From positions 81,973 to 145,972 of the forward strand of contig JBAZSZ010000001.1 of NCBI GenBank assembly GCA_041662205.1: 64,000 nt of DNA, in the 5' to 3' direction. A program made the translations under genes and the position numbers. Below the pieces are notes generated by a model. That model searched no databases. It was not told where the DNA came from and saw nothing but the letters and a program-made list of their open reading frames with translations. This document shows positions 1 to 20,668 of this stretch, in pieces (position 1 is the stretch's first letter; each line of letters starts with the position of its first letter). Origin of the DNA: Minisyncoccota bacterium. GTDB taxonomy: Bacteria > Patescibacteriota > Minisyncoccia > Phycocordibacterales > UBA9973.

Positions 1-822
1 TGGGAATGCCGACACCGCTACGAACTTGACTGGTCTCACTGCTTCTATTACTAATTTGAATTCGGTAACGGGAGTGTTAGGATCAGCTGCTTTTACGGCT
101 AGTACTTCTTATGATGCTGCCGGCTCAGCCGCCGCAGTCACGCCCACTAGTTTAGGTTTAGTCATTGGTACTGATGTTCTTGCTTACCGTACCTTCGGCT
201 CAGCCGCCAACAGTGCGACGACGGATTTTGCTGCTGCCCTCGGAGCCGATGACAATTATGTCACCGATGCACAACTCGTTGTCCTCGGTAATACCTCCGG
301 CACCAACTCTGGCAACAATGCGGCGAACTCCACCTATGCCAATGATTACCGTGCTGCCAACTTTGTGGCTGGGACCAATTACTTGGCACCGAATGGCTCC
401 GCCGCTCTCCTCACTTCTTTCCCCACGCTCAACCAGAGTACGACTGGGAATGCCGACACCGCTACGAACTTGACTGGTCTCACTGCTTCTATTACTAATT
501 TGAATTCGGTAACGGGAGTGTTAGGATCAGCTGCTTTTACGGCTAGTACTTCTTATGATGCTGCCGGCTCAGCCGCCGCAGTCACGCCCACTAGTTTAGG
601 TTTAGTCATTGGTACTGATGTTCTTGCTTACCGTACCTTCGGCTCAGCCGCCAACAGTGCGACGACGGATTTTGCTGCTGCCCTCGGAGCCGATGACAAT
701 TATGTCACCGATGCACAACTCGTTGTCCTCGGTAATACCTCCGGCACCAACTCTGGCAACAATGCGGCGAACTCCACCTATGCCAATGATTACCGTGCTG
801 CCAACTTTGTGGCTGGGACCAA
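1..822. repeat. Tandem direct repeat with a 443-bp period. Copy 1 is 1-~379 and may extend upstream. Copy 2 is 444-~822 and appears identical before diverging at ~823.
   Basis: The sequence at 1-60 recurs at 444-503, and identity continues to about 379 versus 822. The alternative-frame ORFs 165..473 and 609..839 give identical translations. Confidence 0.85.
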
Positions 823-2554
823 TTATCAAGCTCCTTTAGTTTCAAATTCAAATATCAAAACTGTTAATGGCACTTCTCTTCTCGGTAGTGGAGATATTAC
901 TCAGACATCTGTTTCAGGTAACGCGGGGACCGTCACTAACGCTACCTTTACCACGGCGCTGACGGTCAATACTGGAACCCTCACTTTGACTGCCAACGCT
1001 GCCAACACTTCTGTTCTCACTATCGGAGCTGGAGCAGTTTCAGTTTCTGGAAGTAATACCGGGGATCAGACTTTAGCAGGCCTAGGTGCCGCTGCCGCTA
1101 ATGGTTCCAACTGGACTTTTGCTTCCCAAGCAATCGGAGATTTAGCTTACGCAACTAGCGCCACTGCTTATGGAAGACTAGCAGATGTAGCAACTGGAAG
1201 TGTCTTAATCTCTGGTGGTGTTGGGGTGGCCCCATCTTGGTCTACCACTCCGACTTTTACTGGTACTAATATTTCTGGTACGGCGGCTAACTTGACTGCT
1301 GGTCATGTCACCAACGGCACCTTTACTACGGCGTTGACGGTTAACGGCGGTACAGGTGGCACAATCACATGGCCAACTGGTGCACCGACTTTAACAATTC
1401 CAAGTGGCGGGGGAACGTTGGGTACAGGTGCTTTTGCGACAATTGCTAACTATGCCCCACTTGCTTCCCCGACTTTTACTGGTACAGTTACTCTGCCGAG
1501 TGGCACAACACTTACTGCGCCAAAGTTTGTCGATCTTGGTTTTATTGCGGATGCTAATGGTAACGAAATGATTATTTTTGATACAGTGACTTCTGCTGTT
1601 AATGAAATCACGCTAGCAAACGCAGCTACAACTGCCAGCCCAACAATTTCCGCTTCTGGTGAAACAAATGTATCTTTGAATATTAAAGCCAAAGGCACTG
1701 GTAGTGTAGATGTTGGTAATACTGCTGGTACATTAGCATTTTCTATAGATTCTTCTGGTAATGTTCTCATACTACCAACATATTCTGTAACAGTAGGTGC
1801 GACTAATCGTGATCTGTATATAGATAATACTGGTAAGATTGGTTATGTTTCTTCCGCCGAGCGTTATAAAAAAGATATTTCTAATATGGAAAATATTTCT
1901 TGGCTGTATGATTTGCGCCCAGTCAATTATGTGTATAAAAATGATTCGTTGGGACGAAAGCAATATGGACTTATTGCTGAAGAAGTAGACAAGGTCAATC
2001 CGCTGTTTGTGAGCTATAATGACCAAGGACAGCCAGAAACGGTGCAGTATTCAATGTTCGCACCGGTGTTGATTAAAGCAATTCAGGAACTAAATTTAAA
2101 TTTTGAAGCTGTTGCAGGTACCGTCACTCCACTTACTGGATCTGCTTCCGAATCTTTTGTGAATGTATTCTTTAGTAATATTAAAAATACCATCGGCACA
2201 TGGCTCGCAGATGCTACAAATGGAGTGACAGATGTTTTCGCAAATGTATTTAATGCTAAAGAAAAAATCTGTGTAGATGGGGAATGCTTAACGAAGGATG
2301 ATATTCACGCCTTGCTTTTACTCGCGCATCCGACGACCACCCCGCCTCCTGCTTCAGCGGGCGAGTCGGTACCTGTTCCAGCGCCAGAAATTCCGACGTG
2401 TGTCGATCCTCAAACTTTAGTAAATAATGTTTGCATGGATCCAGCAATCGAGTCTCCGGTAGTCACTTGTTCTGATGGCATTCAAAACCAAGATGAAACT
2501 GACATAGACACTGGAGGAGTTTGTGTTCCAATTCCAGCTGAAATAGTGCCGTAA
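1..2554 (+). CDS. Tail-fibre-like repeat protein with a C-terminal intramolecular chaperone (peptidase S74-like) domain and a Cys/Pro-rich tail. It is 5'-partial and its frame is open to the window edge.
   Basis: The ORF 26..2554 is in frame with position 2. It is rich in Thr, Ser, Ala, Gly and Asn with no TM segment. The region SSAERYKKDISNMENISWLYDLRPVNYVYKND...QYGLIAEEVDKVNPLFVSY resembles the auto-cleaving chaperone domain of phage tail-spike and endosialidase proteins. A 128-aa segment is repeated identically. Confidence 0.55.
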   Translation, partial: GNADTATNLTGLTASITNLNSVTGVLGSAAFTASTSYDAAGSAAAVTPTSLGLVIGTDVLAYRTFGSAANSATTDFAAALGADDNYVTDAQLVVLGNTSGTNSGNNAANSTYANDYRAANFVAGTNYLAPNGSAALLTSFPTLNQSTTGNADTATNLTGLTASITNLNSVTGVLGSAAFTASTSYDAAGSAAAVTPTSLGLVIGTDVLAYRTFGSAANSATTDFAAALGADDNYVTDAQLVVLGNTSGTNSGNNAANSTYANDYRAANFVAGTNYQAPLVSNSNIKTVNGTSLLGSGDITQTSVSGNAGTVTNATFTTALTVNTGTLTLTANAANTSVLTIGAGAVSVSGSNTGDQTLAGLGAAAANGSNWTFASQAIGDLAYATSATAYGRLADVATGSVLISGGVGVAPSWSTTPTFTGTNISGTAANLTAGHVTNGTFTTALTVNGGTGGTITWPTGAPTLTIPSGGGTLGTGAFATIANYAPLASPTFTGTVTLPSGTTLTAPKFVDLGFIADANGNEMIIFDTVTSAVNEITLANAATTASPTISASGETNVSLNIKAKGTGSVDVGNTAGTLAFSIDSSGNVLILPTYSVTVGATNRDLYIDNTGKIGYVSSAERYKKDISNMENISWLYDLRPVNYVYKNDSLGRKQYGLIAEEVDKVNPLFVSYNDQGQPETVQYSMFAPVLIKAIQELNLNFEAVAGTVTPLTGSASESFVNVFFSNIKNTIGTWLADATNGVTDVFANVFNAKEKICVDGECLTKDDIHALLLLAHPTTTPPPASAGESVPVPAPEIPTCVDPQTLVNNVCMDPAIESPVVTCSDGIQNQDETDIDTGGVCVPIPAEIVP

Positions 2555-2643: not shown

Positions 2644-3420
2644 ATGAAACACATAAAAAAAATAGTCTTTATCTTAACGTGTGTATTTTCTTTCCTTATT
2701 ATTTTTGGTGGTACTTTGACAGCGCAAGCTTATTCGTGTACTGGCACCAGCACGATCACTTGCACTTTTTCTTTTACTGGAAGTTTAGAAAATTGGACGG
2801 TTCCGGCGGGAGTTAATTCGATTAGCGTGACTGCAAAAGGAGCTGGCGGAGGCGGTGGTGGCAGTGATAATTCAGGCAATCAAACCGTTGGCATTAACGG
2901 TGATTTGGCTACAACCACAGTCAGTGTTACGCCCTTAGAAACACTGACAATTATTGTTGCTGGTGGCGGGATAAAAGGTGTTAATGATGGTTCTGGTAGT
3001 GCCGGAGGAGCAGGATATACAAATGGCGGTACTGGTGGAAACGGGGAATACTATGGGTATTGTGGAGATTCTGATGCAGATGAATGGGCATATGGTGGCG
3101 CAGGCGCAGGCGGATCCAGTGGAATAAAAAGAAACACCACTAGGCTTGTTGAGGCAAAAGGAGGAGATGGGGGAAAATCATCAGATTATGGTGGAGCTTG
3201 TGCTTATAATAATGGTGGATCAGGGGGCATAGGAGGGGGTAGTAATTATCCCGCTCTTACAACACAATATGGCGGTGGAACTGGTGGTGCTTTTGATACT
3301 GACGGTGGGAATGGTTCACTTATTCTAACTTATACGGGAGCCCCTTCCTCTTCTATATTTTCTTTTTATGCCGGTTCGTCGGGTTTTCGTATTTTTAGCC
3401 CCTTTCGCATTTTTTACTAA
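2644..3420 (+). CDS. Secreted glycine-rich protein with a signal peptide (hypothetical)
   Basis: An N-terminal hydrophobic segment ends in TAQA. Poly-Gly and GGxGG tracts occur throughout. No catalytic motif was recognised. Confidence 0.5.
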   Translation: MKHIKKIVFILTCVFSFLIIFGGTLTAQAYSCTGTSTITCTFSFTGSLENWTVPAGVNSISVTAKGAGGGGGGSDNSGNQTVGINGDLATTTVSVTPLETLTIIVAGGGIKGVNDGSGSAGGAGYTNGGTGGNGEYYGYCGDSDADEWAYGGAGAGGSSGIKRNTTRLVEAKGGDGGKSSDYGGACAYNNGGSGGIGGGSNYPALTTQYGGGTGGAFDTDGGNGSLILTYTGAPSSSIFSFYAGSSGFRIFSPFRIFY

Positions 3421-10362: not shown

Positions 10363-11037
10363 ATGAAGATTCTGATTGTTGAAGATGAAGAAAATATTGC
10401 TAAACTTTTAAAAAAGGGTCTCGAATCTGAGGGTTATGCTGTTGATTACTTGACGGATGGGGAGTCTGGGCAAAATCGTATTTTAATGCATCATCAAGAT
10501 TATGATTTAATAATTTTGGATTTGATGCTTCCTTTGAAATCTGGAAAGGAGATTTGCCACAGTATGAGAGAGATGGATATTTCTACTCCGGTTTTAGTGT
10601 TAACTGCGAAATGTGATTCAGTCAGCAAAGTATCTTTGCTCGATATCGGAGCCGATGACTATATGTCAAAACCGTTCGAACTTGCAGAATTATTTGCCAG
10701 AATCAGAGCTTTGACTCGACGACCCAAAGTTTCTCTGCCGGTAGAATTGAAAATAAGTGATCTGGTTTTATCTGCGAAAGATAAAAAGGTTTTTAGAAAC
10801 AAAAAAGATTTAAATCTTACTTTAAAAGAATTCAGACTCTTAGAATATTTTATGCGTCGTCCCAACCAAGTAGTAGAGAGAGTTGACTTGGTGGATAACC
10901 TTTGGGATTTTGATCAAGATTCATTTTCTAATACGGTGGATGTGTATATAAATCGCTTAAGGAATAAAGTAGATAAAGGCAGAAAAGAAAAAATGATTCA
11001 AACAATTCGCGGAGTAGGATACAAATTAAAAGTTTAA
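10363..11037 (+). CDS. OmpR-family response regulator (receiver plus winged-helix DNA-binding domain)
   Basis: MKILIVEDEENIAKLL, the IILDLMLP Asp pocket and the C-terminal pattern YINRLRNKVD...IRGVGYKL are present. No kinase is adjacent. Confidence 0.85.
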   Translation: MKILIVEDEENIAKLLKKGLESEGYAVDYLTDGESGQNRILMHHQDYDLIILDLMLPLKSGKEICHSMREMDISTPVLVLTAKCDSVSKVSLLDIGADDYMSKPFELAELFARIRALTRRPKVSLPVELKISDLVLSAKDKKVFRNKKDLNLTLKEFRLLEYFMRRPNQVVERVDLVDNLWDFDQDSFSNTVDVYINRLRNKVDKGRKEKMIQTIRGVGYKLKV

Positions 11038-11289: not shown

Positions 11290-14200
11290 ATGGAAACTAG
11301 TTATAGTTATTTAAAAAACTTAGGAAAAATTTTTATAATTCTATCTGTTCTCATTTTTCCACTCGAAAATATTAGTAGTGTAGAAGCGGCCATACTAACA
11401 CCGGATGCCAGCGTGGTAGATGGTGTGGAAAATAAAAATGTAACTTCTATTTTAGATAAGAGAAAAAATCGGGTGACGCAAGAACAAAGACAAGCGGCAG
11501 CCGATGCTCAAAATACAGGCGTAAGCATTTCCAGTTCTTCCAAGGTTCTTGGTGGAATCATAGCTCCGATGATGACTATAACCGCTCCGCTCGTAGCTGC
11601 GGTGACTGTACCAGCGCCAGGGGGAACCCCAAATTATTTTGGTCCGGAACCTAACTGGGCTTATACTCCGCTTTTAAGAAAATTCGTTGATACCCTCCCT
11701 GGTCTTGGTTCAGCTAATACAAATAATTTAGGACAATATATTCCAATTGCTGCTGCGGATACTGCTACATATCCAGGATCAGATTATTATGAAATAGGAT
11801 TAGTGCAATACACGGAAAAAATGCATTCAGATTTACCGGTGACAACTTTGCGAGGATATGTTCAGCTAGAGACATCTGTTAACGCTTCTGCCAGCAAACA
11901 TATCGCTTTGAAATATCCTAATGGTAATCCGATTTTAAATTCTAGCGGAGCTCAAGTTTTTGGTTTTGACAATCCTCATTATCTTGGGCCTACAATTGTA
12001 GCTCAAAAAGATAAACCTACGCGCATTAAATTTACAAATTTTCTTCCTACTGGGACAGGAGGCAATCTTTTTATACCAGTTGATACTTCGGTGATGGGAG
12101 CTGGCATGGGTCCTTTAGATATGCCAGGAATGCCAGGAATGAAAGAAGATTATACTCAAAATAGAGCAACTCTCCATCTTCATGGAGGAAATACTCCGTG
12201 GATTTCCGATGGTACTCCGCATCAATGGACTACTCCAGCCGGAGAAAACACCCAATATCCAGAGGGGGTGAGTGTGTCTAATGTGCCAGATATGCCAGAC
12301 CCAGGAGTAGGATCTCTAACATTTTTTTATAGCAATCAGCAAAGCGCGCGTTTGATGTTTTATCATGACCATGCGTTTGGTATCACTCGACTTAATGTTT
12401 ATGCTGGTGAAGCGGCTGGATATTTATTAACAGATGCTACGGAACAAAATTTAATTTCAACTGGAGTAATACCATCTGATCAAATTCCTCTAATTATTCA
12501 GGATAAAACTTTTGTTGATGCCACAACAATTAGAGCAACCGATCCAACATGGAACTGGGGTCCAACTCCAGGTACACCTCATTCTGGTGATCTTTGGATT
12601 CCACATGTTTATATGCCTAATCAGAATCCTAATAGTAATAACGGTGTAAATCCTTTTGGACGTTGGGATTATGGTCCTTGGTTCTGGCCTCCTTGGCCGG
12701 CTGTGAATGCTCCAATTACGAAAGCAGATGGAACAGAAGTTCCCAATGTCCCAGATGTTTCGATGGGTATGGAAGCATTCAATGACACTCCACTTGTAAA
12801 TGGGACGGCTTATCCAAGTTTAACACTTCAACCGAAAGCTTATAGATTCCGTATTTTAAATGCTGCTAATGACAGATTTTGGAATTTACAACTCATTCAA
12901 GCAGACCCAACTGTTATTTCTTCAGATGGTCGCGCTAATACTGATGTAAAAGTGGTGCCATTTACGACCAGTACGACTTGGCCAGCTGGATATCCGACAC
13001 CAGATACTAGAGATGGGGGAGTGCCTGATCCGACGACTAGGGGTCCGGTCATGACTCAGATCGGTACAGAAGGCGGATTTCTACCAGCTCCTGTGACTCA
13101 CAATAATATTCCTATTGGATTTGATATGGATGGGAAAAGTATTACAGTGGGTAATGTCAAAGAACATAATTTACTATTAGGCCCAGCCGAAAGAGCAGAT
13201 GTCATAGTTGATTTTTCTGCTTACGCTGGAAAAACTTTGATTCTTTATAATGACGCTCCGGCTGCTTTTCCTGCTAGTGACCCGCGATTGGATTATTATA
13301 CTGGTAATCCTGATATGACAACCACTGGTGGAACGACTTCTACTTTGGCTGGTTTTGGACCAAATACTAGGACTATCATGCAAATCAAAATAGCTGCAGG
13401 TACTCCCATTCCTTTTAATCTAACTCCTTTAAATACCGCTTTACCAGCAGCATTCGCATCATCACAAGATCAAATCATAGTACCTCAGGAAGGATATAAT
13501 GCTGTATATAACGGAAATTTCCCAAATAATAGGAATGCTTATGCTAGAATTCAAGACACTTCATTAACTTTCACTCCGCTTGGCGGAACAACACCAGTAA
13601 CAATTCCTTTTGCGCCTAAAGCTATCGCTGAAGAATTCGAAAGTGTCTATGGGCGTATGAGCGGATTCCTAGGGCTCGAACTTCCATTTACTAATGGTGG
13701 AAATCAGACAACAATTTTTTACGATTATCAAGATCCGACTTCTGAAATTATAAATGATACTAATAATATATCAACGGCACAAATAGGAACACTTGGCGAT
13801 GGTACCCAGATATGGAAAATAACACATAACGGAGTAGATACTCATCCTATACATTTCCACTTATTTAATGTCCAGCTCGTAAATCGGGTGGATTGGGCTG
13901 GTGTAGTAAAACCACCAGAACCTAATGAGCTCGGCTGGAAAGAAACAGTGCGGATGAATCCCCTTGAAGACGCCATAGTTGCTCTAAGACCGGTTTCACC
14001 AAAACAACCTTTTGGAATACCAGAAAGTGTAAGACCGCTTGATCCAACAATGCCACTTGGAACAACTGCTCAGTTTAAAGGAGTAGACGCAAACGGCAAT
14101 CCGATAACAGTTACAAATGAGCTAGCGAACTTTGGGTGGGAATATGTTTGGCACTGCCATATTTTGAGCCATGAAGAAATGGATATGATGCGTCCGATTA

Positions 14201-14685
14201 AATTTAACGTTGCAAGTACGCTTCCAATTACACCTGGTTTAAATGCTACTAAAGTAGGAAATCAAGTAAATCTAACATGGACAGATGGAACTCCTGTAAG
14301 TAATCCAACTACCCTCGGTAATCCTGCTAATGAAGTTGGTTTTCGTGTTGAGAGAGCTATTGTGACTGGTGGTAACCCTGGCATATACACAGAGATCGGA
14401 AAAGGTATCGCCAATTCTACAACTTTTACAGACACTGCTATAGCATCTAGTACAACTTATAGCTATCGAGTGGTTGCATTCAATGCAGCAGGAGATGCAT
14501 CTTCAGCACCAAGAACAGTATCTATAACCGGCACAGTTTGCCAAACTGGAGCCGATACTAGTGGAAACGGAATTATCACCATAGCAGAATTACTAGCCTA
14601 CATAAGTAGGTGGAAAGCAGGAAATGTCACAATGCAACTTCTTATGCAAGCAATCAGTTTTTGGAAAATAGGAACAGGTTGTTAA
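11290..14685 (+). CDS. Large secreted multicopper oxidase (laccase/CotA-like) with an Fn3-like region and a C-terminal Cys-bracketed EF-hand/dockerin-like module
   Basis: All four Cu-ligand motifs are present: HLHGG, HDHAFG, HPIHFHLFNVQ and WHCHILSHEEMDMM. An N-terminal hydrophobic anchor is present. The C-terminus reads CQTGADTSGNGIITIAELLAYISRWKAGNV...FWKIGTGC and ends at the stop. Confidence 0.8.
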   Translation: METSYSYLKNLGKIFIILSVLIFPLENISSVEAAILTPDASVVDGVENKNVTSILDKRKNRVTQEQRQAAADAQNTGVSISSSSKVLGGIIAPMMTITAPLVAAVTVPAPGGTPNYFGPEPNWAYTPLLRKFVDTLPGLGSANTNNLGQYIPIAAADTATYPGSDYYEIGLVQYTEKMHSDLPVTTLRGYVQLETSVNASASKHIALKYPNGNPILNSSGAQVFGFDNPHYLGPTIVAQKDKPTRIKFTNFLPTGTGGNLFIPVDTSVMGAGMGPLDMPGMPGMKEDYTQNRATLHLHGGNTPWISDGTPHQWTTPAGENTQYPEGVSVSNVPDMPDPGVGSLTFFYSNQQSARLMFYHDHAFGITRLNVYAGEAAGYLLTDATEQNLISTGVIPSDQIPLIIQDKTFVDATTIRATDPTWNWGPTPGTPHSGDLWIPHVYMPNQNPNSNNGVNPFGRWDYGPWFWPPWPAVNAPITKADGTEVPNVPDVSMGMEAFNDTPLVNGTAYPSLTLQPKAYRFRILNAANDRFWNLQLIQADPTVISSDGRANTDVKVVPFTTSTTWPAGYPTPDTRDGGVPDPTTRGPVMTQIGTEGGFLPAPVTHNNIPIGFDMDGKSITVGNVKEHNLLLGPAERADVIVDFSAYAGKTLILYNDAPAAFPASDPRLDYYTGNPDMTTTGGTTSTLAGFGPNTRTIMQIKIAAGTPIPFNLTPLNTALPAAFASSQDQIIVPQEGYNAVYNGNFPNNRNAYARIQDTSLTFTPLGGTTPVTIPFAPKAIAEEFESVYGRMSGFLGLELPFTNGGNQTTIFYDYQDPTSEIINDTNNISTAQIGTLGDGTQIWKITHNGVDTHPIHFHLFNVQLVNRVDWAGVVKPPEPNELGWKETVRMNPLEDAIVALRPVSPKQPFGIPESVRPLDPTMPLGTTAQFKGVDANGNPITVTNELANFGWEYVWHCHILSHEEMDMMRPIKFNVASTLPITPGLNATKVGNQVNLTWTDGTPVSNPTTLGNPANEVGFRVERAIVTGGNPGIYTEIGKGIANSTTFTDTAIASSTTYSYRVVAFNAAGDASSAPRTVSITGTVCQTGADTSGNGIITIAELLAYISRWKAGNVTMQLLMQAISFWKIGTGC

Positions 14686-14849
14686 AAAAATTAAAAAGCA
14701 GGCCTTACTTCATTTGTTTAGTTTTTAATAATAAATTTAACTTTAACTTTTAACATGTAAGTATAATTTTATTATAAGGATTTGAGTGAAGCGAAGGGTC
14801 GAATAGTTAGTCGAATATAAAAATATTATAAAAATAAAGAATAAAAATT

Positions 14850-16829
14850 ATGAATAAAAAAAGTATTAAAGCGTTATATGTGTTGTTGTTTGCAAAAATG
14901 AATAGAAAAGTTAAATATAAATTTAGCGCGTCTCTGTTGACAGGTGTTTTTATGTTTACTTTAGTATTTAGCGCTGGAGTGGCACAAGCTGCGTTGCAAG
15001 CTGTCGGGCCAATAGGAGATCCTGTAAATAATGGATATCCTACATATTTCCAAGATCAAACAGGATTAGCTTTGGAATTATGTCTGGTACAAAATTTACC
15101 AACCGACCTATTCCAACCATGTCTCTTGACTGCGGAATTTGATCCAGACCCATTAATAACACCTGGCATTCCAGCAATTCCAATTGGAACAGTTCTTAGC
15201 GGGGATTTTCCAGATGAATCATTTTACTTTGCCGCTAGCGCAGACTTAAGTCCTGACAATGTTAGACTTCCTGGAAGAAATCAGGATATCAAAATTTTGT
15301 GGGGGGCTGCTTTAGAGCAAGCCTTTTTGGCCGGAATAACTCCTGGAGCACAAAGCATGTTTTTAAGAACTCAAGTTGATATAGCTGGTTTAATCCCCGG
15401 AGAAACTTATACTGTCAATACTCCTTACGGACCGATTAGTGTGGTTGCTGATGATATCGGTGGAGGGAGAACAAGATTTGAGGACATAGTAGTCTGCAAC
15501 GTTGGAACTCTATGTAATTTTTCATTAATCTTACCGGGGACTCAAACAAATATGGGGCCATTTCTAAAATGGGATCCTGCGGTTTTACCTCTTGCCCCAG
15601 CTGGATTTATCGGTGATCCTAATGTAACACACACAATTATCGGTGGACCAATTAGGAATAATATTTCTGTTACAGGAACAAGTGTTGGGGGAGTCGGCAT
15701 AGATGAAATGTCCACTGATCAATTTTCAATTTCTGGGAAAATAGCAATCATTGACACTGTCGCACCAGTAATTGTTTCAACTACTCCTGCCTCTGTACCA
15801 GTAAATTCTTCTAATGTTGTTTTAAGCGCAAACATTACTGACGACTTAGGAGTGACTGGAGTTACAGCTGATTTAGGAGCATTAAGCAACACTTTTTCTG
15901 CTACTCTTAATAATACACAGGAAGTTCCTGCAACCGTAAGTACTGCAACAGGAACTGGAGCATTTACTATTGATGCAAATGCAAATACATTAACTTATAA
16001 TATTAGTGCTTCAGGTTTGCAAGGTGGAGCAATCACCGGAATGCATATTCACGGATCTGCTGTTCCTCCAGATGGAGCTATAGGTCAAAATTCAGCAATT
16101 GCTTTTAGCTTAGGTACGACTCTTCCGGCAAGTGGAACCTGGAATTATCCTGAAGCAATGGAACCAGAAATTTTAGCAGGAAGGACTTATGTAAATATTC
16201 ACACAACTTTATTTCCTAACGGTGAAATTCGCGGACAAATAATTCCTACCCCAAACACAGTAACTATGATCAGGAATGCCGGTACAGCAACAGACGGCAC
16301 ATGGGCACTTATTCTACCAAATTTGAATAGAGCAGGATTATTTAATATTCCTATTACAGCTACCGATGGAAGCAATCCTGTAACAACTAATCATTCTCTC
16401 GCTGTCACTGTTTTATCTGGAGTGAATGTCACTCCACCAACTGCTTCAATAAATACAGGATTAACTCAACAACTCTCAGCATCAGCTCTCGATCAATTTA
16501 ATAATCCACTAACTACCCAACCAACTTTTACTTGGTCTTCTAGTAATAACAATATTGCAACAGTTAATAGTTCAGGCCTAGTTACTGCAGTCGCTCTCGG
16601 TACTGCCACGATTACAGCCACAACTGATGGATTAATAAATGTTGCAGGTACTTCGGCAATCACAGTGACGGCAGCTTCAGTTTGCCAGACAGCAGCTGAT
16701 ATAGATGGTAGCGGAACTATAAGCTTTGCGGAAGTTCTAAGCTATATTACAAGCTGGAAAGCCGGCAACGTAGTTTTTTCAACTTTATTACAAGCAATAG
16801 GTTTTTGGAAAGCTGCAGTAGGTTGTTAA
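14850..16829 (+). CDS. Secreted CHRD-domain plus Big2-domain protein with the same C-terminal Cys-bracketed module
   Basis: A signal peptide is present. The CHRD-like segment reads GAFTIDANANTLTYNISASGLQGGAITGMHIHGS...YVNIHTTLFPNGEIRGQI. The Big2-like segment reads TQQLSASALDQFNNPLT...ATVNSSGLVTAVALGTATITATT. The C-terminus reads CQTAADIDGSGTISFAEVLSYITSWKAGNV...FWKAAVGC and ends at the stop. Confidence 0.65.
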   Translation: MNKKSIKALYVLLFAKMNRKVKYKFSASLLTGVFMFTLVFSAGVAQAALQAVGPIGDPVNNGYPTYFQDQTGLALELCLVQNLPTDLFQPCLLTAEFDPDPLITPGIPAIPIGTVLSGDFPDESFYFAASADLSPDNVRLPGRNQDIKILWGAALEQAFLAGITPGAQSMFLRTQVDIAGLIPGETYTVNTPYGPISVVADDIGGGRTRFEDIVVCNVGTLCNFSLILPGTQTNMGPFLKWDPAVLPLAPAGFIGDPNVTHTIIGGPIRNNISVTGTSVGGVGIDEMSTDQFSISGKIAIIDTVAPVIVSTTPASVPVNSSNVVLSANITDDLGVTGVTADLGALSNTFSATLNNTQEVPATVSTATGTGAFTIDANANTLTYNISASGLQGGAITGMHIHGSAVPPDGAIGQNSAIAFSLGTTLPASGTWNYPEAMEPEILAGRTYVNIHTTLFPNGEIRGQIIPTPNTVTMIRNAGTATDGTWALILPNLNRAGLFNIPITATDGSNPVTTNHSLAVTVLSGVNVTPPTASINTGLTQQLSASALDQFNNPLTTQPTFTWSSSNNNIATVNSSGLVTAVALGTATITATTDGLINVAGTSAITVTAASVCQTAADIDGSGTISFAEVLSYITSWKAGNVVFSTLLQAIGFWKAAVGC

Positions 16830-16875: not shown

Positions 16876-19800
16876 ATGAAATACTTTAAATCAATAATCA
16901 AAGCGGGAATGTTCATAGCTGTGCTGACATTCTTTGTGGGAATAGGTGCTCAAGCAGCTTCTGCCGCCACCGTCACACGTAGCTTCTCCACTCTCACGCC
17001 AGCAGCAGGAACATCTTTAACAGTTTCTCTGGCTGTAGCAATGAATCCTGCAGACATTCTAACATTGATTGAAGAAACAGCTCCTGTGGGCTGGGTCATC
17101 ACAAATCCTGGAACAGGAACAGTAGGAGCAGACGGTATTTTGAGACTGAATGTAGCTGCAACCGGAACAGAGCAATATACAATCTCTGTACCAGCTTCAG
17201 CATCAGGAATAAATAATTTCTCAGGAGTATTTGCCACATTAGCAAACCCAGTATCCTCTCCAATAACAGGAAGCACATCGGTAACGGTAGCACCTGCTCC
17301 GGTAGTTGACATAACTCCACCTACAATCAACTTACTCGGAACTTCTCCAATAGATGTAACCCAAAACACAACCTACACTGATGCAGGAGCTACTGCTTCA
17401 GATAATGTTGACGGAAACATCACAGCCAACATTACAACAGTAAACCCTGTAAATACTGCAATTTTAGGAACATACACAGTCACTTACAATGTATCTGACG
17501 CAGCTGGAAATCCTGCAACTCAAGTAACAAGAACAGTTAATGTAGTAGCAGTAGTTGTTCCACCAGTAACCGCCACCGTCACACGTAGCTTCTCCACTCT
17601 CACGCCAGCAGCAGGAACATCTTTAACAGTTTCTCTGGCTGTAGCAATGAATCCTGCAGACATTCTAACATTGATTGAAGAAACAGCTCCTGTGGGCTGG
17701 GTCATCACAAATCCTGGAACAGGAACAGTAGGAGCAGACGGTATTTTGAGACTGAATGTAGCTGCAACCGGAACAGAGCAATATACAATCTCTGTACCAG
17801 CTTCAGCATCAGGAATAAATAATTTCTCAGGAGTATTTGCCACATTAGCAAACCCAGTATCCTCTCCAATAACAGGAAGCACATCGGTAACGGTAGCACC
17901 TGCTCCGGTAGTTCCAGTCCTCACCACCATCAACGTTACTTCCGTCACCCCATCCGTAGTAGTAGGCAATACTCAACAAATGACAGCAACTACTTTAGAT
18001 CAAAACGGAGCACCGATTGCAGCAACTGTAACTTGGTCTAGTTCAAATACAGCAGTTGGCACTATTGATGTTACTACCGGAATGTTTACCGCGGTTTCTG
18101 CTGGAACTACAACTGTAATGGCAATGAACGGAGCAGTTATGGGAACAACTTTGGTAACAGTAACCGCAACACCTGTAACGTTTACAATAAATGTAACTTC
18201 CGGAGCAAATGGTACCATTACACCAACAGGTACAGCAGGAGTAGTTACTTTAAATTCTGGAGCGAACCAAACATTTACCATCACACCAAATGCAGGATTT
18301 AATATTCAGGATGTTTTAGTTGATGGATCTTCAGTTGGAGCTGTTGCTACTTTCACATTTACAAACGTAACAGCTAACCATACTATTTCAGCTAGTTTCG
18401 CATCAATTCCGGTAGGTTCATTCACGATAACTTCTTCTGCAGGAATAAATGGTAACATAGCTCCTCTTGGCGCCCTAAGTTTTGCCGGAGGCACCAATGC
18501 AACATACACAATTTCTCCAAGTGCAGGTTTTCAAGTATTAGATGTTTTAGTTGATGGATTTTCAGTTGGAGCCGTCACTACTTTCACCTTCACAAATATC
18601 ACTGCTAACCATACAATCGCTGCCAGCTTTATTGCAACTCCAGTCCTCACAACTATCACCGTTACACCATCAGCACCATCAATACAGGCTGGAACTACCC
18701 AACAATTTACCGCAGTTGCTAAGGATCAAAATGGAATTGCCTTAGTCACTCAACCGGTTTTCACATGGACATCAGGAAATAATATAGTTACCACCATAGA
18801 TGCATCAGGCCTTGCTCAGGGCATCGTCGCAGGTGGACCAGTTCTCATTACTGCTACCTCTGGAGCAGTTTCTGGTACAGCTACCTTAACAGTTACAGCA
18901 GTTCCAGTTTTGACTTCGGTCACAGTAGCTCCACCTACACCATCAATTATAGTTGGAGCAACTCAGCAACTAACAGCAAATCCTTTAGATCAAAATGGAA
19001 TTGCCTTTAACGGTGCTGCAATAGCCTGGTCTTCAAGTGATTCTACAATTGCCACAGTTGATAATAACGGCTTAGTAACAGGTGTCGCAGTTGGAACAAC
19101 AACAATCACAGCAACAGCGACTTCAGGAGCTATTACTGTAACAGGAACCGCGACAATCACAATAACCGCTAATCCAGTAACTCCTGTCCTCACTACCATC
19201 AACGTTACTCCCGTCACCCCATCCGTAGTAGTAGGAAATACTCAACAAATGACAGCAACTACTTTAGATCAAAACGGAGCACCGATTGCAGCAACTGTAA
19301 CTTGGTCTAGTTCAAATACAGCAGTTGGCACTATTGATGTTACTACCGGAATGTTTACCGCGGTCGCAGTAGGCACTACCACAATTACTGCTACGAGTGG
19401 CGCGGTGACAGGAACAACTTTAGTAACAGTAACTCCTGCTCCTGTCCTCACTACCATCAACGTTACTCCCGTCACCCCATCCGTAGTAGTAGGCAATACT
19501 CAACAAATGACAGCAACTACTTTAGATCAAAACGGAGCACCGATTGCAGCAACTGTAACTTGGTCTAGTTCAAATACAGCAGTTGGCACTATTGATGTTA
19601 CTACCGGAATGTTTACCGCGGTCGCAGTAGGCACTACCACAATTACTGCTACGAGTGGCGCGGTGACAGGAACAACTTTGGTGACGGTGACAGCGGTGCC
19701 TCAATCTAGTGGAGGTGGTGGTAGTTTTATAAGACCCATTATTGTTGGTCAAGTATTAGGTGCTTTCACGGGACCAATTGCAGGATGTGGCAATAGAACA

Positions 19801-20175
19801 ACTGGATTTAGTGTAACTTCTGGTCAGTCTTGTGTTGGAAACACTGGATCAGAGGGTCAAATTCTCGGATGTGGCAATAGAACAACTGGATTTAGTATAA
19901 CTACTGGTCAATCTTGTATTGGAAATACTGGAGCAGATGAACAAGTGCTCGGTGCTGAAAAATTTATTTTCACACTATTCCTAAAGCAAGGTTCAAAAGG
20001 AGATGAAGTTATGGAGCTTCAGAAATTCTTAAACACTACTAAATATGGTCCATTAGTAATTGATGGAAAATTTGGGAAAAAGACTAAAGAAGCTGTTCTT
20101 AAATTCCAAATAGCAAACGGGCTAAAAGGGGATGGAATCGTAGGACCTCTAACCCGCGCAGTTCTCAATCAATAA
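16876..20175 (+). CDS. Cell-surface protein with a duplicated 114-aa domain, a HYR/DUF5011-like Ig domain, at least five Big2 repeats, a Cys repeat pair and a C-terminal peptidoglycan-binding domain
   Basis: A signal peptide is present. DITPPTINLLGTSPIDV...NVDGNITANITTV...TYNVSDAAGNP is the Ig-like domain. VGNTQQMTATTLDQNGAPIAATVTWSSSNTAVGTIDVTTGMFTAV recurs as the Big2 repeat. The C-terminus GSKGDEVMELQKFLN...IDGKFGKKTKEAVLKFQ is PG_binding_1-like. Confidence 0.7.
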   Translation: MKYFKSIIKAGMFIAVLTFFVGIGAQAASAATVTRSFSTLTPAAGTSLTVSLAVAMNPADILTLIEETAPVGWVITNPGTGTVGADGILRLNVAATGTEQYTISVPASASGINNFSGVFATLANPVSSPITGSTSVTVAPAPVVDITPPTINLLGTSPIDVTQNTTYTDAGATASDNVDGNITANITTVNPVNTAILGTYTVTYNVSDAAGNPATQVTRTVNVVAVVVPPVTATVTRSFSTLTPAAGTSLTVSLAVAMNPADILTLIEETAPVGWVITNPGTGTVGADGILRLNVAATGTEQYTISVPASASGINNFSGVFATLANPVSSPITGSTSVTVAPAPVVPVLTTINVTSVTPSVVVGNTQQMTATTLDQNGAPIAATVTWSSSNTAVGTIDVTTGMFTAVSAGTTTVMAMNGAVMGTTLVTVTATPVTFTINVTSGANGTITPTGTAGVVTLNSGANQTFTITPNAGFNIQDVLVDGSSVGAVATFTFTNVTANHTISASFASIPVGSFTITSSAGINGNIAPLGALSFAGGTNATYTISPSAGFQVLDVLVDGFSVGAVTTFTFTNITANHTIAASFIATPVLTTITVTPSAPSIQAGTTQQFTAVAKDQNGIALVTQPVFTWTSGNNIVTTIDASGLAQGIVAGGPVLITATSGAVSGTATLTVTAVPVLTSVTVAPPTPSIIVGATQQLTANPLDQNGIAFNGAAIAWSSSDSTIATVDNNGLVTGVAVGTTTITATATSGAITVTGTATITITANPVTPVLTTINVTPVTPSVVVGNTQQMTATTLDQNGAPIAATVTWSSSNTAVGTIDVTTGMFTAVAVGTTTITATSGAVTGTTLVTVTPAPVLTTINVTPVTPSVVVGNTQQMTATTLDQNGAPIAATVTWSSSNTAVGTIDVTTGMFTAVAVGTTTITATSGAVTGTTLVTVTAVPQSSGGGGSFIRPIIVGQVLGAFTGPIAGCGNRTTGFSVTSGQSCVGNTGSEGQILGCGNRTTGFSITTGQSCIGNTGADEQVLGAEKFIFTLFLKQGSKGDEVMELQKFLNTTKYGPLVIDGKFGKKTKEAVLKFQIANGLKGDGIVGPLTRAVLNQ
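16964..17913. repeat. Two apparently identical 344-bp direct repeats (16964-17307 and 17570-17913), 606 bp apart, inside the surface-protein gene
   Basis: Both copies start at ccgccaccgtcacacgtagcttctcc and end at cacctgctccggtagtt. The protein segments ATVTRSF...APAPVV are identical. The minus-strand ORFs 16950..17369 and 17520..17969 translate identically. Confidence 0.85.
19183..19698. repeat. Tandem near-identical 258-bp (86-aa Big2) repeats, with a more diverged copy at ~17914-18100
   Basis: cctgtcctcactaccatcaacgttactcccgtcaccccatccgtagtagtagg... recurs at 19183 and 19441. Confidence 0.8.
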
Positions 20176-20240: not shown

Positions 20241-20288
20241 TTCTTTGTTTTCTGCTAATATAAAAAAAGTTCTTTGAAGAAAATAAAT

Positions 20289-20602
20289 TCCGGGGTAGCT
20301 CAGCGGTAGAGCGGTCGCCTGTGTCAGCATTACGCAGCTTCCTAAGAAAACTTAGGTTGAAAAACAAGGTGAATTCGGGGAAGCCCTTATGGGGTAATCC
20401 CGAGCCAAGCCTCAATATAATATTGAGGAAGGTGTAGAGACTATCCATTTATTGGAGTACATCGGCAAATCGTCGGTGGAAGCGCCTTGCTCCTAAGTTC
20501 TTAAAATCATTTTAAGAATATGGAGATGATATAGTCCACACTTCTAGTAATAGGAGACAAAGTGTAAGCGATTGGTCGTAGGTTCGATCCCTACCCCCGG
20601 AG
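20289..20602 (+). tRNA. tRNA-Asn (anticodon GTT), interrupted. Exon 1 is 20289-20322 (positions 1-35), exon 2 is 20565-20602 (positions 36-73) and the intron is 20323-20564.
   Basis: The exons read TCCGGGGTAGCTCAGCGGTAGAGCGGTCGCCTGT|TAAGCGATTGGTCGTAGGTTCGATCCCTACCCCCGGAG. The acceptor is UCCGGGG/CCCCGGA with U1-A72 and G73. The anticodon loop CUGUUAA matches bacterial tRNA-Asn. Confidence 0.8.
20323..20564 (+). ncRNA. Group I self-splicing intron (242 nt) in the tRNA-Asn anticodon loop, between U35 and U36
   Basis: P1 forms between exon CUGU plus intron GU and the internal guide ACGCAG, placing a U:G wobble at the 5' splice site. The intron ends in G (omega G). The candidate P7 strands are AGACUA and UAGUC. 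Hairpins at cctaagAAAActtagg, cctcaataTAAtattgagg and ttcttaaaATCAttttaagaa fit P2, P6 and P9. Confidence 0.7.
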
Positions 20603-20668
20603 CATTTTTTTAATTCTTATAAATAGATAAGATTTTGATTGTTTTATTTTATTTGATAAAATTAAAAT

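Follow-up and report, generated by a model that had tools for sequence, protein, structure and literature searches.

The closest described systems to the one considered here pair a dockerin with a cohesin. Type I and type II dockerins (Pfam Dockerin_1, PF00404) carry two loop-plus-helix segments, a duplicated F-hand, repeated at an offset of about 22-24 residues, and anchoring scaffoldins combine the partner domain (Pfam Cohesin, PF00963) with an SLH anchor. The GC-type dockerin family (NF041540), which also has two loops, is typical of Planctomycetota. In bacteria of the Candidate Phyla Radiation (CPR) and in DPANN archaea, surface organisation and host attachment are largely unknown and most large surface proteins are unannotated. 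We analysed a 64-kb stretch (the window; G+C 36%) of contig JBAZSZ010000001.1 from a Minisyncoccota bacterium, in which a multicopper-oxidase-like protein (gene 1) and a CHRD/Big_2 protein (gene 2), both secreted, end in the same 48-residue tag and are followed by a candidate wall-anchored scaffold (gene 3) with an unnamed domain of about 110 residues, here called VTRSFS. We consider it probable (roughly 0.6) that the tag is a minimal dockerin-like C-terminal docking domain, which would dock non-covalently onto the VTRSFS domain of an anchored scaffold.

The two copies of the tag agree with what an earlier note on this DNA had described, namely a Cys-to-Gly-Cys module with an EF-hand loop that runs up to the stop codon of both giant proteins. 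Positions 14539-14685 translate to CQTGADTSGNGIITIAELLAYISRWKAGNVTMQLLMQAISFWKIGTGC followed by the stop, the C-terminus of gene 1, and positions 16683-16829 translate to CQTAADIDGSGTISFAEVLSYITSWKAGNVVFSTLLQAIGFWKAAVGC followed by the stop, the C-terminus of gene 2. The two tags are 58% identical over 48 columns without gaps, and both Cys residues, the Ca2+ loop and the WKAGNV and FWK motifs singled out in the earlier note are retained in the alignment. At the DNA level the likeness extends from the first Cys codon to the stop codon and no further. A six-frame motif scan and a hidden Markov model (HMM) scan of the 64-kb window return exactly these two copies. Because each copy matches the family profile with a very small E value (Table 1) and 627 cluster representatives match the same profile, the shared tag of genes 1 and 2 is confirmed to lie far beyond chance. 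Pfam also bears out the host annotations first read from the sequence, that is, a multicopper oxidase, a CHRD/Big_2 protein and a peptidoglycan-binding domain in gene 3. Gene 1 matches Cu-oxidase_2 at 34.1 bits, Cu-oxidase and Cu-oxidase_3 weakly, and a PhsA/CueO-like NCBIfam model with a score under the cutoff. Gene 2 carries a CHRD domain (81.8 bits) together with Big_2, and its product is 100% identical to a protein from a Candidatus Paceibacterota metagenome-assembled genome (MAG).

Table 1. Coordinates of the tag array and of other features in the 64-kb window.
Feature	Position	Strand	Remarks
Gene 1, secreted multicopper-oxidase-like protein	11290..14685	+	1131 aa; N-terminal signal-peptide-like segment, C-terminal tag
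Tag copy 1	14539..14682	+	48 aa, Cys1…Gly47-Cys48; stop 14683-14685; family HMM E 2e-23
EF-hand loop of tag copy 1	14554..14589	+	
Gene 2, secreted CHRD + Big_2 protein	14850..16829	+	659 aa; C-terminal tag
Tag copy 2	16683..16826	+	48 aa; stop 16827-16829; family HMM E 7e-22
EF-hand loop of tag copy 2	16698..16733	+	
Gene 3, candidate wall-anchored scaffold	16876..20175	+	1099 aa
VTRSFS domain copy 1, candidate receptor	16963..17295	+	local HMM E 3e-49
VTRSFS domain copy 2	17569..17901	+	inside tandem duplication
Tandem duplication in gene 3	16964..17336 / 17570..17940	+	97.6% DNA identity, 374 nt
Two Cys-bracketed motifs of gene 3	19783..19932	+	GCGNRTTGFS(V/I)T(S/T)GQSC(V/I)GNTG
PG_binding_1 (PF01471), peptidoglycan anchor of gene 3	19999..20166	+	aa 1042-1097; 54.5 bits vs cutoff 23
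OmpR-type response regulator	10363..11037	+	upstream of array
Group I intron	20252..20557	+	just downstream of gene 3; Rfam RF00028, 67 bits
tRNA (ARAGORN, introns allowed)	~20289..20603	+	reported Ile, anticodon aat; intron 228 nt
Open reading frame with Peptidase_S74 (tail-fibre intramolecular chaperone) domain	26..2554	+	842 aa
Gly_rich_2 protein	2644..3420	+	after Peptidase_S74 open reading frame

A family profile built from 14 modules was searched exhaustively against 1.84 billion cluster representatives and matches 627 of them at E<=1e-3 and 63 at E<=1e-10. Among homologues of the CHRD protein, 13 end in the tag, at 41-57% overall identity. The following counts were taken over 162 tag instances, made up of the best 150 of the 627 profile matches and the CHRD homologues. 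The tag lies at most 3 residues from the host C-terminus in 146 of the 162, on hosts of 49-1231 aa, and an N-terminal hydrophobic segment fitting a signal peptide is present in 83 of the 117 hosts longer than 200 aa. These hosts are unrelated and include Big_2 arrays, a Peptidase_S8 subtilase, CBM96, Laminin_G_3/DUF2341, metallophosphoesterase, MopE-repeat and cohesin-containing proteins. The tag is thus a family-wide C-terminal tag on diverse secreted hosts. Its CPR sources are Paceibacterota, Moranbacteria, Kaiserbacteria and Minisyncoccia; its DPANN sources are one Woesearchaeota and one Nanoarchaeota archaeon, archaeal assignments that carry the caveat of MAG binning. Binning aside, the two archaeal-type loci differ from the CPR loci in how the partner protein is anchored. 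The related-locus searches yielded 4 loci from the tag and 7 from the VTRSFS domain, so that this taxonomic range is a lower bound.

Several subtypes can be told apart. The 48-aa form of the window ends in …FWKxGxGC, and a 45-aa form ending in …WKxGC occurs on nine or more different LamG-type proteins encoded by one contig; in further forms the first Cys has moved into the Ca2+ loop, or both Cys are missing. The nine tagged proteins of the …WKxGC subtype (P0200, P0205, P0207, P0215, P0220, P0227, P0240, P0251 and P0271) are encoded on a single contig of 1,838,930 bp, each belongs to a different 90%-identity cluster, and their sequences ahead of the tag resemble the Laminin_G_3 protein P0186. 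This contig thus has a large tagged repertoire in a genome that exceeds the typical CPR/DPANN size. The 119-aa protein P0121 has nothing but a signal peptide and two tags in tandem, and could serve as a crosslinker or as a competitor for receptor domains. In two other proteins, P0137 and P0138, Pfam detects a Cohesin domain (26.6 and 23.7 bits) alongside a C-terminal Cys…GC tag; they could be adaptors between true cohesin-dockerin pairs and the new system.

The Ca2+ loop follows the consensus D6-x-[DNS]8-x-[DNS]10-G11-x-I13-x-x-x-E17, a canonical 12-residue EF-hand loop in which D6 and E17 are invariant across 60 diverse modules. Of the 162 instances, 155 have an EF-type loop, and loop position 12 is Glu in every one of these (155/155). 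Residues 13-29 and 30-46 of the tag form an internal duplication (hhalign probability 95.5%, E 1.6e-8), and identity within the tag reaches 44% at an offset of 17 residues as against 5-9% at neighbouring offsets. The 17-residue unit reads [IV]-s-x-x-[EL]-[IL]-L-x-[YA]-I-x-x-W-K-x-G, and the Ca2+ loop is found only in the first of the two units. From the 14-sequence alignment, AlphaFold2 (AF2) predicts a two-helix hairpin with helices at residues 15-26 and 32-44 at a predicted local distance difference test score (pLDDT) of 79.8; residues 1-14 of the model are non-helical and there is no entering helix. The two Cys are both present in 146 instances, both absent in 9 and discordant in 7, and an absent N-terminal Cys is often substituted by a Cys inside the Ca2+ loop. 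Because the two Cys co-occur and a first Cys that has moved remains paired, we propose an intramolecular disulfide, which would staple the C-terminus to the loop region. The loop residues likewise suggest that the tag binds Ca2+. No segment of the tag resembles a transmembrane (TM) helix, the highest 19-aa Kyte-Doolittle mean being 1.58 and the median 0.82.

The earlier note had recognised no named sorting signal in this module, and the comparison with curated families leads to the same result. None of the 14 modules is matched above cutoff by a model of Pfam-A or NCBIfam, and in newer precomputed Pfam annotations of tagged homologues the tail stays uncovered. Dockerin_1 gives no match at E<=1, either for the 14 modules or for the whole proteins of the window. 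The tag is dockerin-like in its logic but lacks the features that define Dockerin_1: it carries a single Ca2+ loop in place of two, its repeat offset is 17 residues, its loop position 12 is Glu, whereas the dockerin tails of orthologues have Asp, and its termini are bracketed by Cys. Its candidate receptor, moreover, is not Pfam Cohesin. An hhalign comparison of the tag with the dockerin tails of orthologues nevertheless covers the loop and helix 1 (probability 62%, E 7.5e-5), and tag and dockerin perhaps share a distant common ancestry. The GC-type dockerin model NF041540 resembles the tag as a dockerin-like C-terminal anchor ending in Gly-Cys; it matches 1 of the 14 members, a module of the window, at 15.2 bits against a cutoff of 29, and the match lays the first unit of the tag on the second repeat of the model.

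With EF-hand domains the tag shares the canonical loop and the exiting helix, and its sequence matches in the PDB are to EF loops only. Its best score with EF-hand_1 is 19.2 bits against a gathering threshold of 25.4, and PF00036, PF13405 and PF13499 all remain below threshold. Unlike EF-hand domains, the tag lacks a paired second EF-hand and, in the AF2 model, an entering helix, and it is extracellular and Cys-bracketed. Among sorting signals, LPXTG, PEP-CTERM and PGF-CTERM give no Pfam or NCBIfam match, and the tag has no TM stretch and ends in Gly-Cys. The C-terminal domain (CTD) of the type IX secretion system (T9SS; PF18962), a beta-sandwich of about 80 aa, is not matched either, the tag being 48 aa long and helical by model. 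PF26918 was considered as a model of the tag and rejected: it is Ig_Eae and is missing from the tagged proteins P0002, P0005 and P0012. We found no description of the tag, or of a CPR/DPANN analogue of cohesin and dockerin, in a literature search whose coverage was incomplete, so that an earlier description is possible. The logic of display is that of cohesin and dockerin, with both parts falling outside the curated families.

Homologues of the CHRD protein offer a comparison of what stands at the position of the tag. There, 13 homologues carry the tag and 6 a two-repeat dockerin, and others have a T9SS CTD (PF18962, in distant Bacteroidota homologues), FlgD-Ig or Cys-rich dockerin-like repeats of the planctomycete type. 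Across the CHRD homologues P0018-P0053, which come from different phyla, lineage-specific C-terminal tags thus occupy one position. The orthologue of the multicopper oxidase at locus L001, 50% identical to gene 1, has no tag. Because tag, dockerin and T9SS CTD replace one another in the CHRD homologues and the L001 oxidase is tagless, the C-terminus reads as a swappable address label. This exchange, together with the terminal position of the tag and its unrelated secreted hosts, supports the dedicated C-terminal docking or targeting tag that the earlier note had proposed.

The dockerin form of the CHRD protein has a comparable genomic setting. At L012, an archaeal-type contig, genes for a CHRD-dockerin protein and an S8-protease-dockerin protein are followed by one for a 909-aa protein with a Cohesin domain (aa 31-161, 34 bits), two S-layer domains and PGF-CTERM. 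This layout matches that of the window, where a tagged multicopper oxidase and a tagged CHRD protein precede a protein with two VTRSFS domains, Big_2 and PG_binding_1. With the local HMM, no VTRSFS domain is detected at the dockerin-type loci L012-L015.

Gene 3 is organised as a signal peptide, a VTRSFS domain, Bact_surface_Ig-like, a second VTRSFS domain, five Big_2 domains, Cys-loop repeats and PG_binding_1. The first VTRSFS copy begins right after the predicted signal-peptide cleavage site (…AQAASA before ATVTRSFS). The tandem duplication listed in Table 1 doubles the candidate receptor; it is either very recent or homogenised, and an assembly artefact is possible. Like the anchoring scaffoldins and the L012 protein, gene 3 has its receptor-like domain first and its anchor last; unlike the anchoring scaffoldins, its family has an unnamed receptor domain and uses PG_binding_1 or a TM helix instead of SLH. 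The Cys-bracketed motifs between the last Big_2 and PG_binding_1 are also found at the C-terminus of the gene 3 orthologue of L001 (10193..12604), and have no Pfam match.

The VTRSFS domain itself is a putative beta-sandwich. Cohesin (PF00963) is not found at E<=1 in any of 9 members with a library that does detect Cohesin in P0138 and L012. Four of the 9 members match DUF11 (PF01345) below threshold (best E 1.6e-3), and there is a sub-threshold likeness to BatD and bMG10. A subgroup of VTRSFS domains (P0261, P0155, P0171 and P0196, of which P0155, from a Nanoarchaeota archaeon, is the only named member) has two Cys around alignment columns 15 and 90. At these columns the domains of the window, L001 and L003 (CPR) and of L002 (Woesearchaeota) have Gly/Ala/Pro and Ala/Gly/Leu, a second instance, after the tag, of Cys gained or lost in pairs, which suggests that the use of extracellular disulfides depends on lineage.

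The VTRSFS domain is encoded next to a tag gene, or fused to it, in 12 of the 12 tag loci with enough flank. It opens the gene directly downstream of the tag gene in the window and in L001-L005, L008 and L016-L019, and tag and VTRSFS share one chain in L005 and L006. Searches begun with the tag and searches begun with the VTRSFS domain both show this adjacency, which recurs in bacteria and archaea alike and with different hosts: CHRD, CBM96, a Big_2 array and a protein of roughly 1340 aa. Among the tag loci compared, conservation extends to no further gene. Of about 146 tagged representatives, 10 are fusions with VTRSFS, among which P0171 and P0184 consist of a signal peptide, VTRSFS and the tag, nothing more. 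At L005, a gene for two VTRSFS domains plus a tag precedes that for a VTRSFS protein, an arrangement as expected of adaptor scaffoldins.

The C-terminus of the VTRSFS carrier bears an envelope anchor in all six loci where it was inspected. It is PG_binding_1 in the four CPR proteins covered as far as their C-terminus, including those of the window, L001 and L003, and a TM helix in the archaeal-type loci L002 (Woesearchaeota), where a short basic tail follows the helix, and L019, which has an HTH_10 neighbour. The type of anchor therefore follows the type of envelope. The idea of gene 3 as a wall-bound scaffold, put forward in the earlier note, is supported by the presence of VTRSFS at 12 of 12 loci and of anchors at six; the likely receptor is the N-terminal VTRSFS domain rather than the Big_2 part that the note had suggested screening.

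Taken together, the exchange of C-termini, the L012 locus, the conserved partner, the fusions and the envelope-matched anchor make docking of secreted proteins through a Ca2+-loop tag onto a VTRSFS scaffold the most economical mechanism. Host proteins would be exported by their N-terminal signal peptides. The tag would fold as a two-helix hairpin from the duplicated 17-residue unit, with its single EF-hand Ca2+ loop in front of helix 1 and with a disulfide from its first to its last Cys joining the termini. It would then dock non-covalently on the VTRSFS domain at the mature N-terminus of the next gene's protein, which offers two copies in gene 3, and this carrier would in turn be held in the envelope, in CPR bacteria through PG_binding_1 and at the two archaeal-type loci through a TM helix at its C-terminus. 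The multicopper oxidase, the CHRD protein, S8 proteases, CBM96 and LamG proteins, that is, enzymes and adhesins, would in this way be displayed on the cell surface, while proteins with both VTRSFS and tag may act as adaptors in the manner of adaptor scaffoldins. We infer the physical binding of tag to VTRSFS, its Ca2+ dependence, the disulfide and the surface display from the sequences.

Some observations weigh against this mechanism. The VTRSFS domain has no significant match to solved structures or to Cohesin, and the single-sequence AF2 model of the fusion protein P0171 reaches a pLDDT of only 35. The ratio of VTRSFS domains to tags varies, with at least three VTRSFS domains for the one tag gene seen at L016 and one for two at L018. 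A fixed 1:1 stoichiometry, with which the window, L001, L002 and L003 would agree, was rejected because L016 and L018 deviate from it. Because several of the 12 loci are CHRD operons orthologous to one another, they count as fewer than 12 independent events.

The variable ratio would be easier to understand if the tag docked on some other ligand, such as a host-cell surface molecule, the S-layer, a glycan or peptidoglycan, and the VTRSFS protein were simply a co-expressed partner. CPR and DPANN organisms are episymbionts rich in adhesin-like proteins, tags also occur on short contigs without a visible VTRSFS domain, and because P0137 and P0138 combine Cohesin with the tag, other receptor systems seem to coexist with the one proposed. 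We nevertheless find this explanation rather unlikely, since the VTRSFS gene is the sole neighbour conserved with different hosts and in both bacteria and archaea, the representatives mentioned above join tag and VTRSFS in a single chain, and the dockerin/cohesin locus L012 shares the layout. A Ca2+-dependent self-association of the tag, for instance as a dimerising or stabilising cap without a dedicated receptor, would suit the pseudo-symmetric duplicated helix unit, which could pair with itself, and the two tandem tags of P0121. It leaves both the adjacency and fusion with VTRSFS and the exchange with dockerin unexplained, and we accord it a slim chance.

We judge it similarly improbable that an enzyme recognises the tag as a signal for sorting or processing, or that its terminal Cys is attached covalently through an intermolecular disulfide, a lipid or another group. 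Known C-terminal signals are often processed, and the last Cys is invariant and lies at or beside the C-terminus in 142 of the 162 instances. However, the tag has neither a TM-like segment nor a basic tail, and the loci compared share no conserved gene for a sortase, an exosortase or a protease. The first Cys co-varies with the last and stays paired with it even inside the Ca2+ loop, which fits an intramolecular bond, and the folded, internally repeated Ca2+-loop architecture is unlike that of cleaved signals. Finally, the two copies adjoin in the window, and the earlier note had considered that, if confined to these two paralogues, the module would probably be a local duplication. The 627 representatives, found on unrelated proteins from several CPR lineages and DPANN archaea, refute this explanation almost beyond doubt, and the two host proteins of the window share nothing beyond the tag.

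Beyond the docking of tag onto VTRSFS, we see about even odds for a wider proposal, namely that CPR bacteria and DPANN archaea share an undescribed two-part surface-assembly system made of a 45-48-aa single-loop, disulfide-stapled tag and an unnamed beta-sandwich receptor, and working in the manner of cohesin and dockerin. The system would include adaptors with two receptor domains and a tag as well as hybrids with true cohesins, and would have passed between bacterial and archaeal ultra-small episymbionts, taking on an anchor that fits the envelope in each case. If so, the tag-receptor pair would let the displayed surface proteome be read from CPR and DPANN genomes, explain the structure of these operons, and indicate gene exchange between ultra-small bacteria and archaea; in the window, it would mean that a multicopper oxidase and a CHRD protein are held on the wall. 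For protein engineering, a 48-residue tag that may be switchable by Ca2+ and stabilised by a disulfide would, together with its partner of about 110 residues, make an attractive orthogonal docking pair.

The surroundings of the array hint at its regulation. Directly upstream of the CHRD-tag gene, L016 (4694..7802) has a response regulator and a MASE3/PAS kinase, L017 (5668..7820) a regulator and a PAS kinase, and L001 (6033..8024) a MASE3/PAS kinase without a regulator. The window has only the response regulator upstream of its array, as against only the kinase in L001. The surface array may thus be under two-component control.

Two further features of the window lie outside the array. Downstream of gene 3, the group I intron and the ARAGORN prediction listed in Table 1 look like a tRNA gene of this CPR genome that is split by an intron (20252..20603). 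The T-arm and the 3' acceptor half are clear after the intron; the ARAGORN and Rfam coordinates overlap imperfectly, and anticodon and exon boundaries are provisional. At the start of the window, the Peptidase_S74 and Gly_rich_2 pair may represent phage-derived or tail-fibre-like surface proteins.

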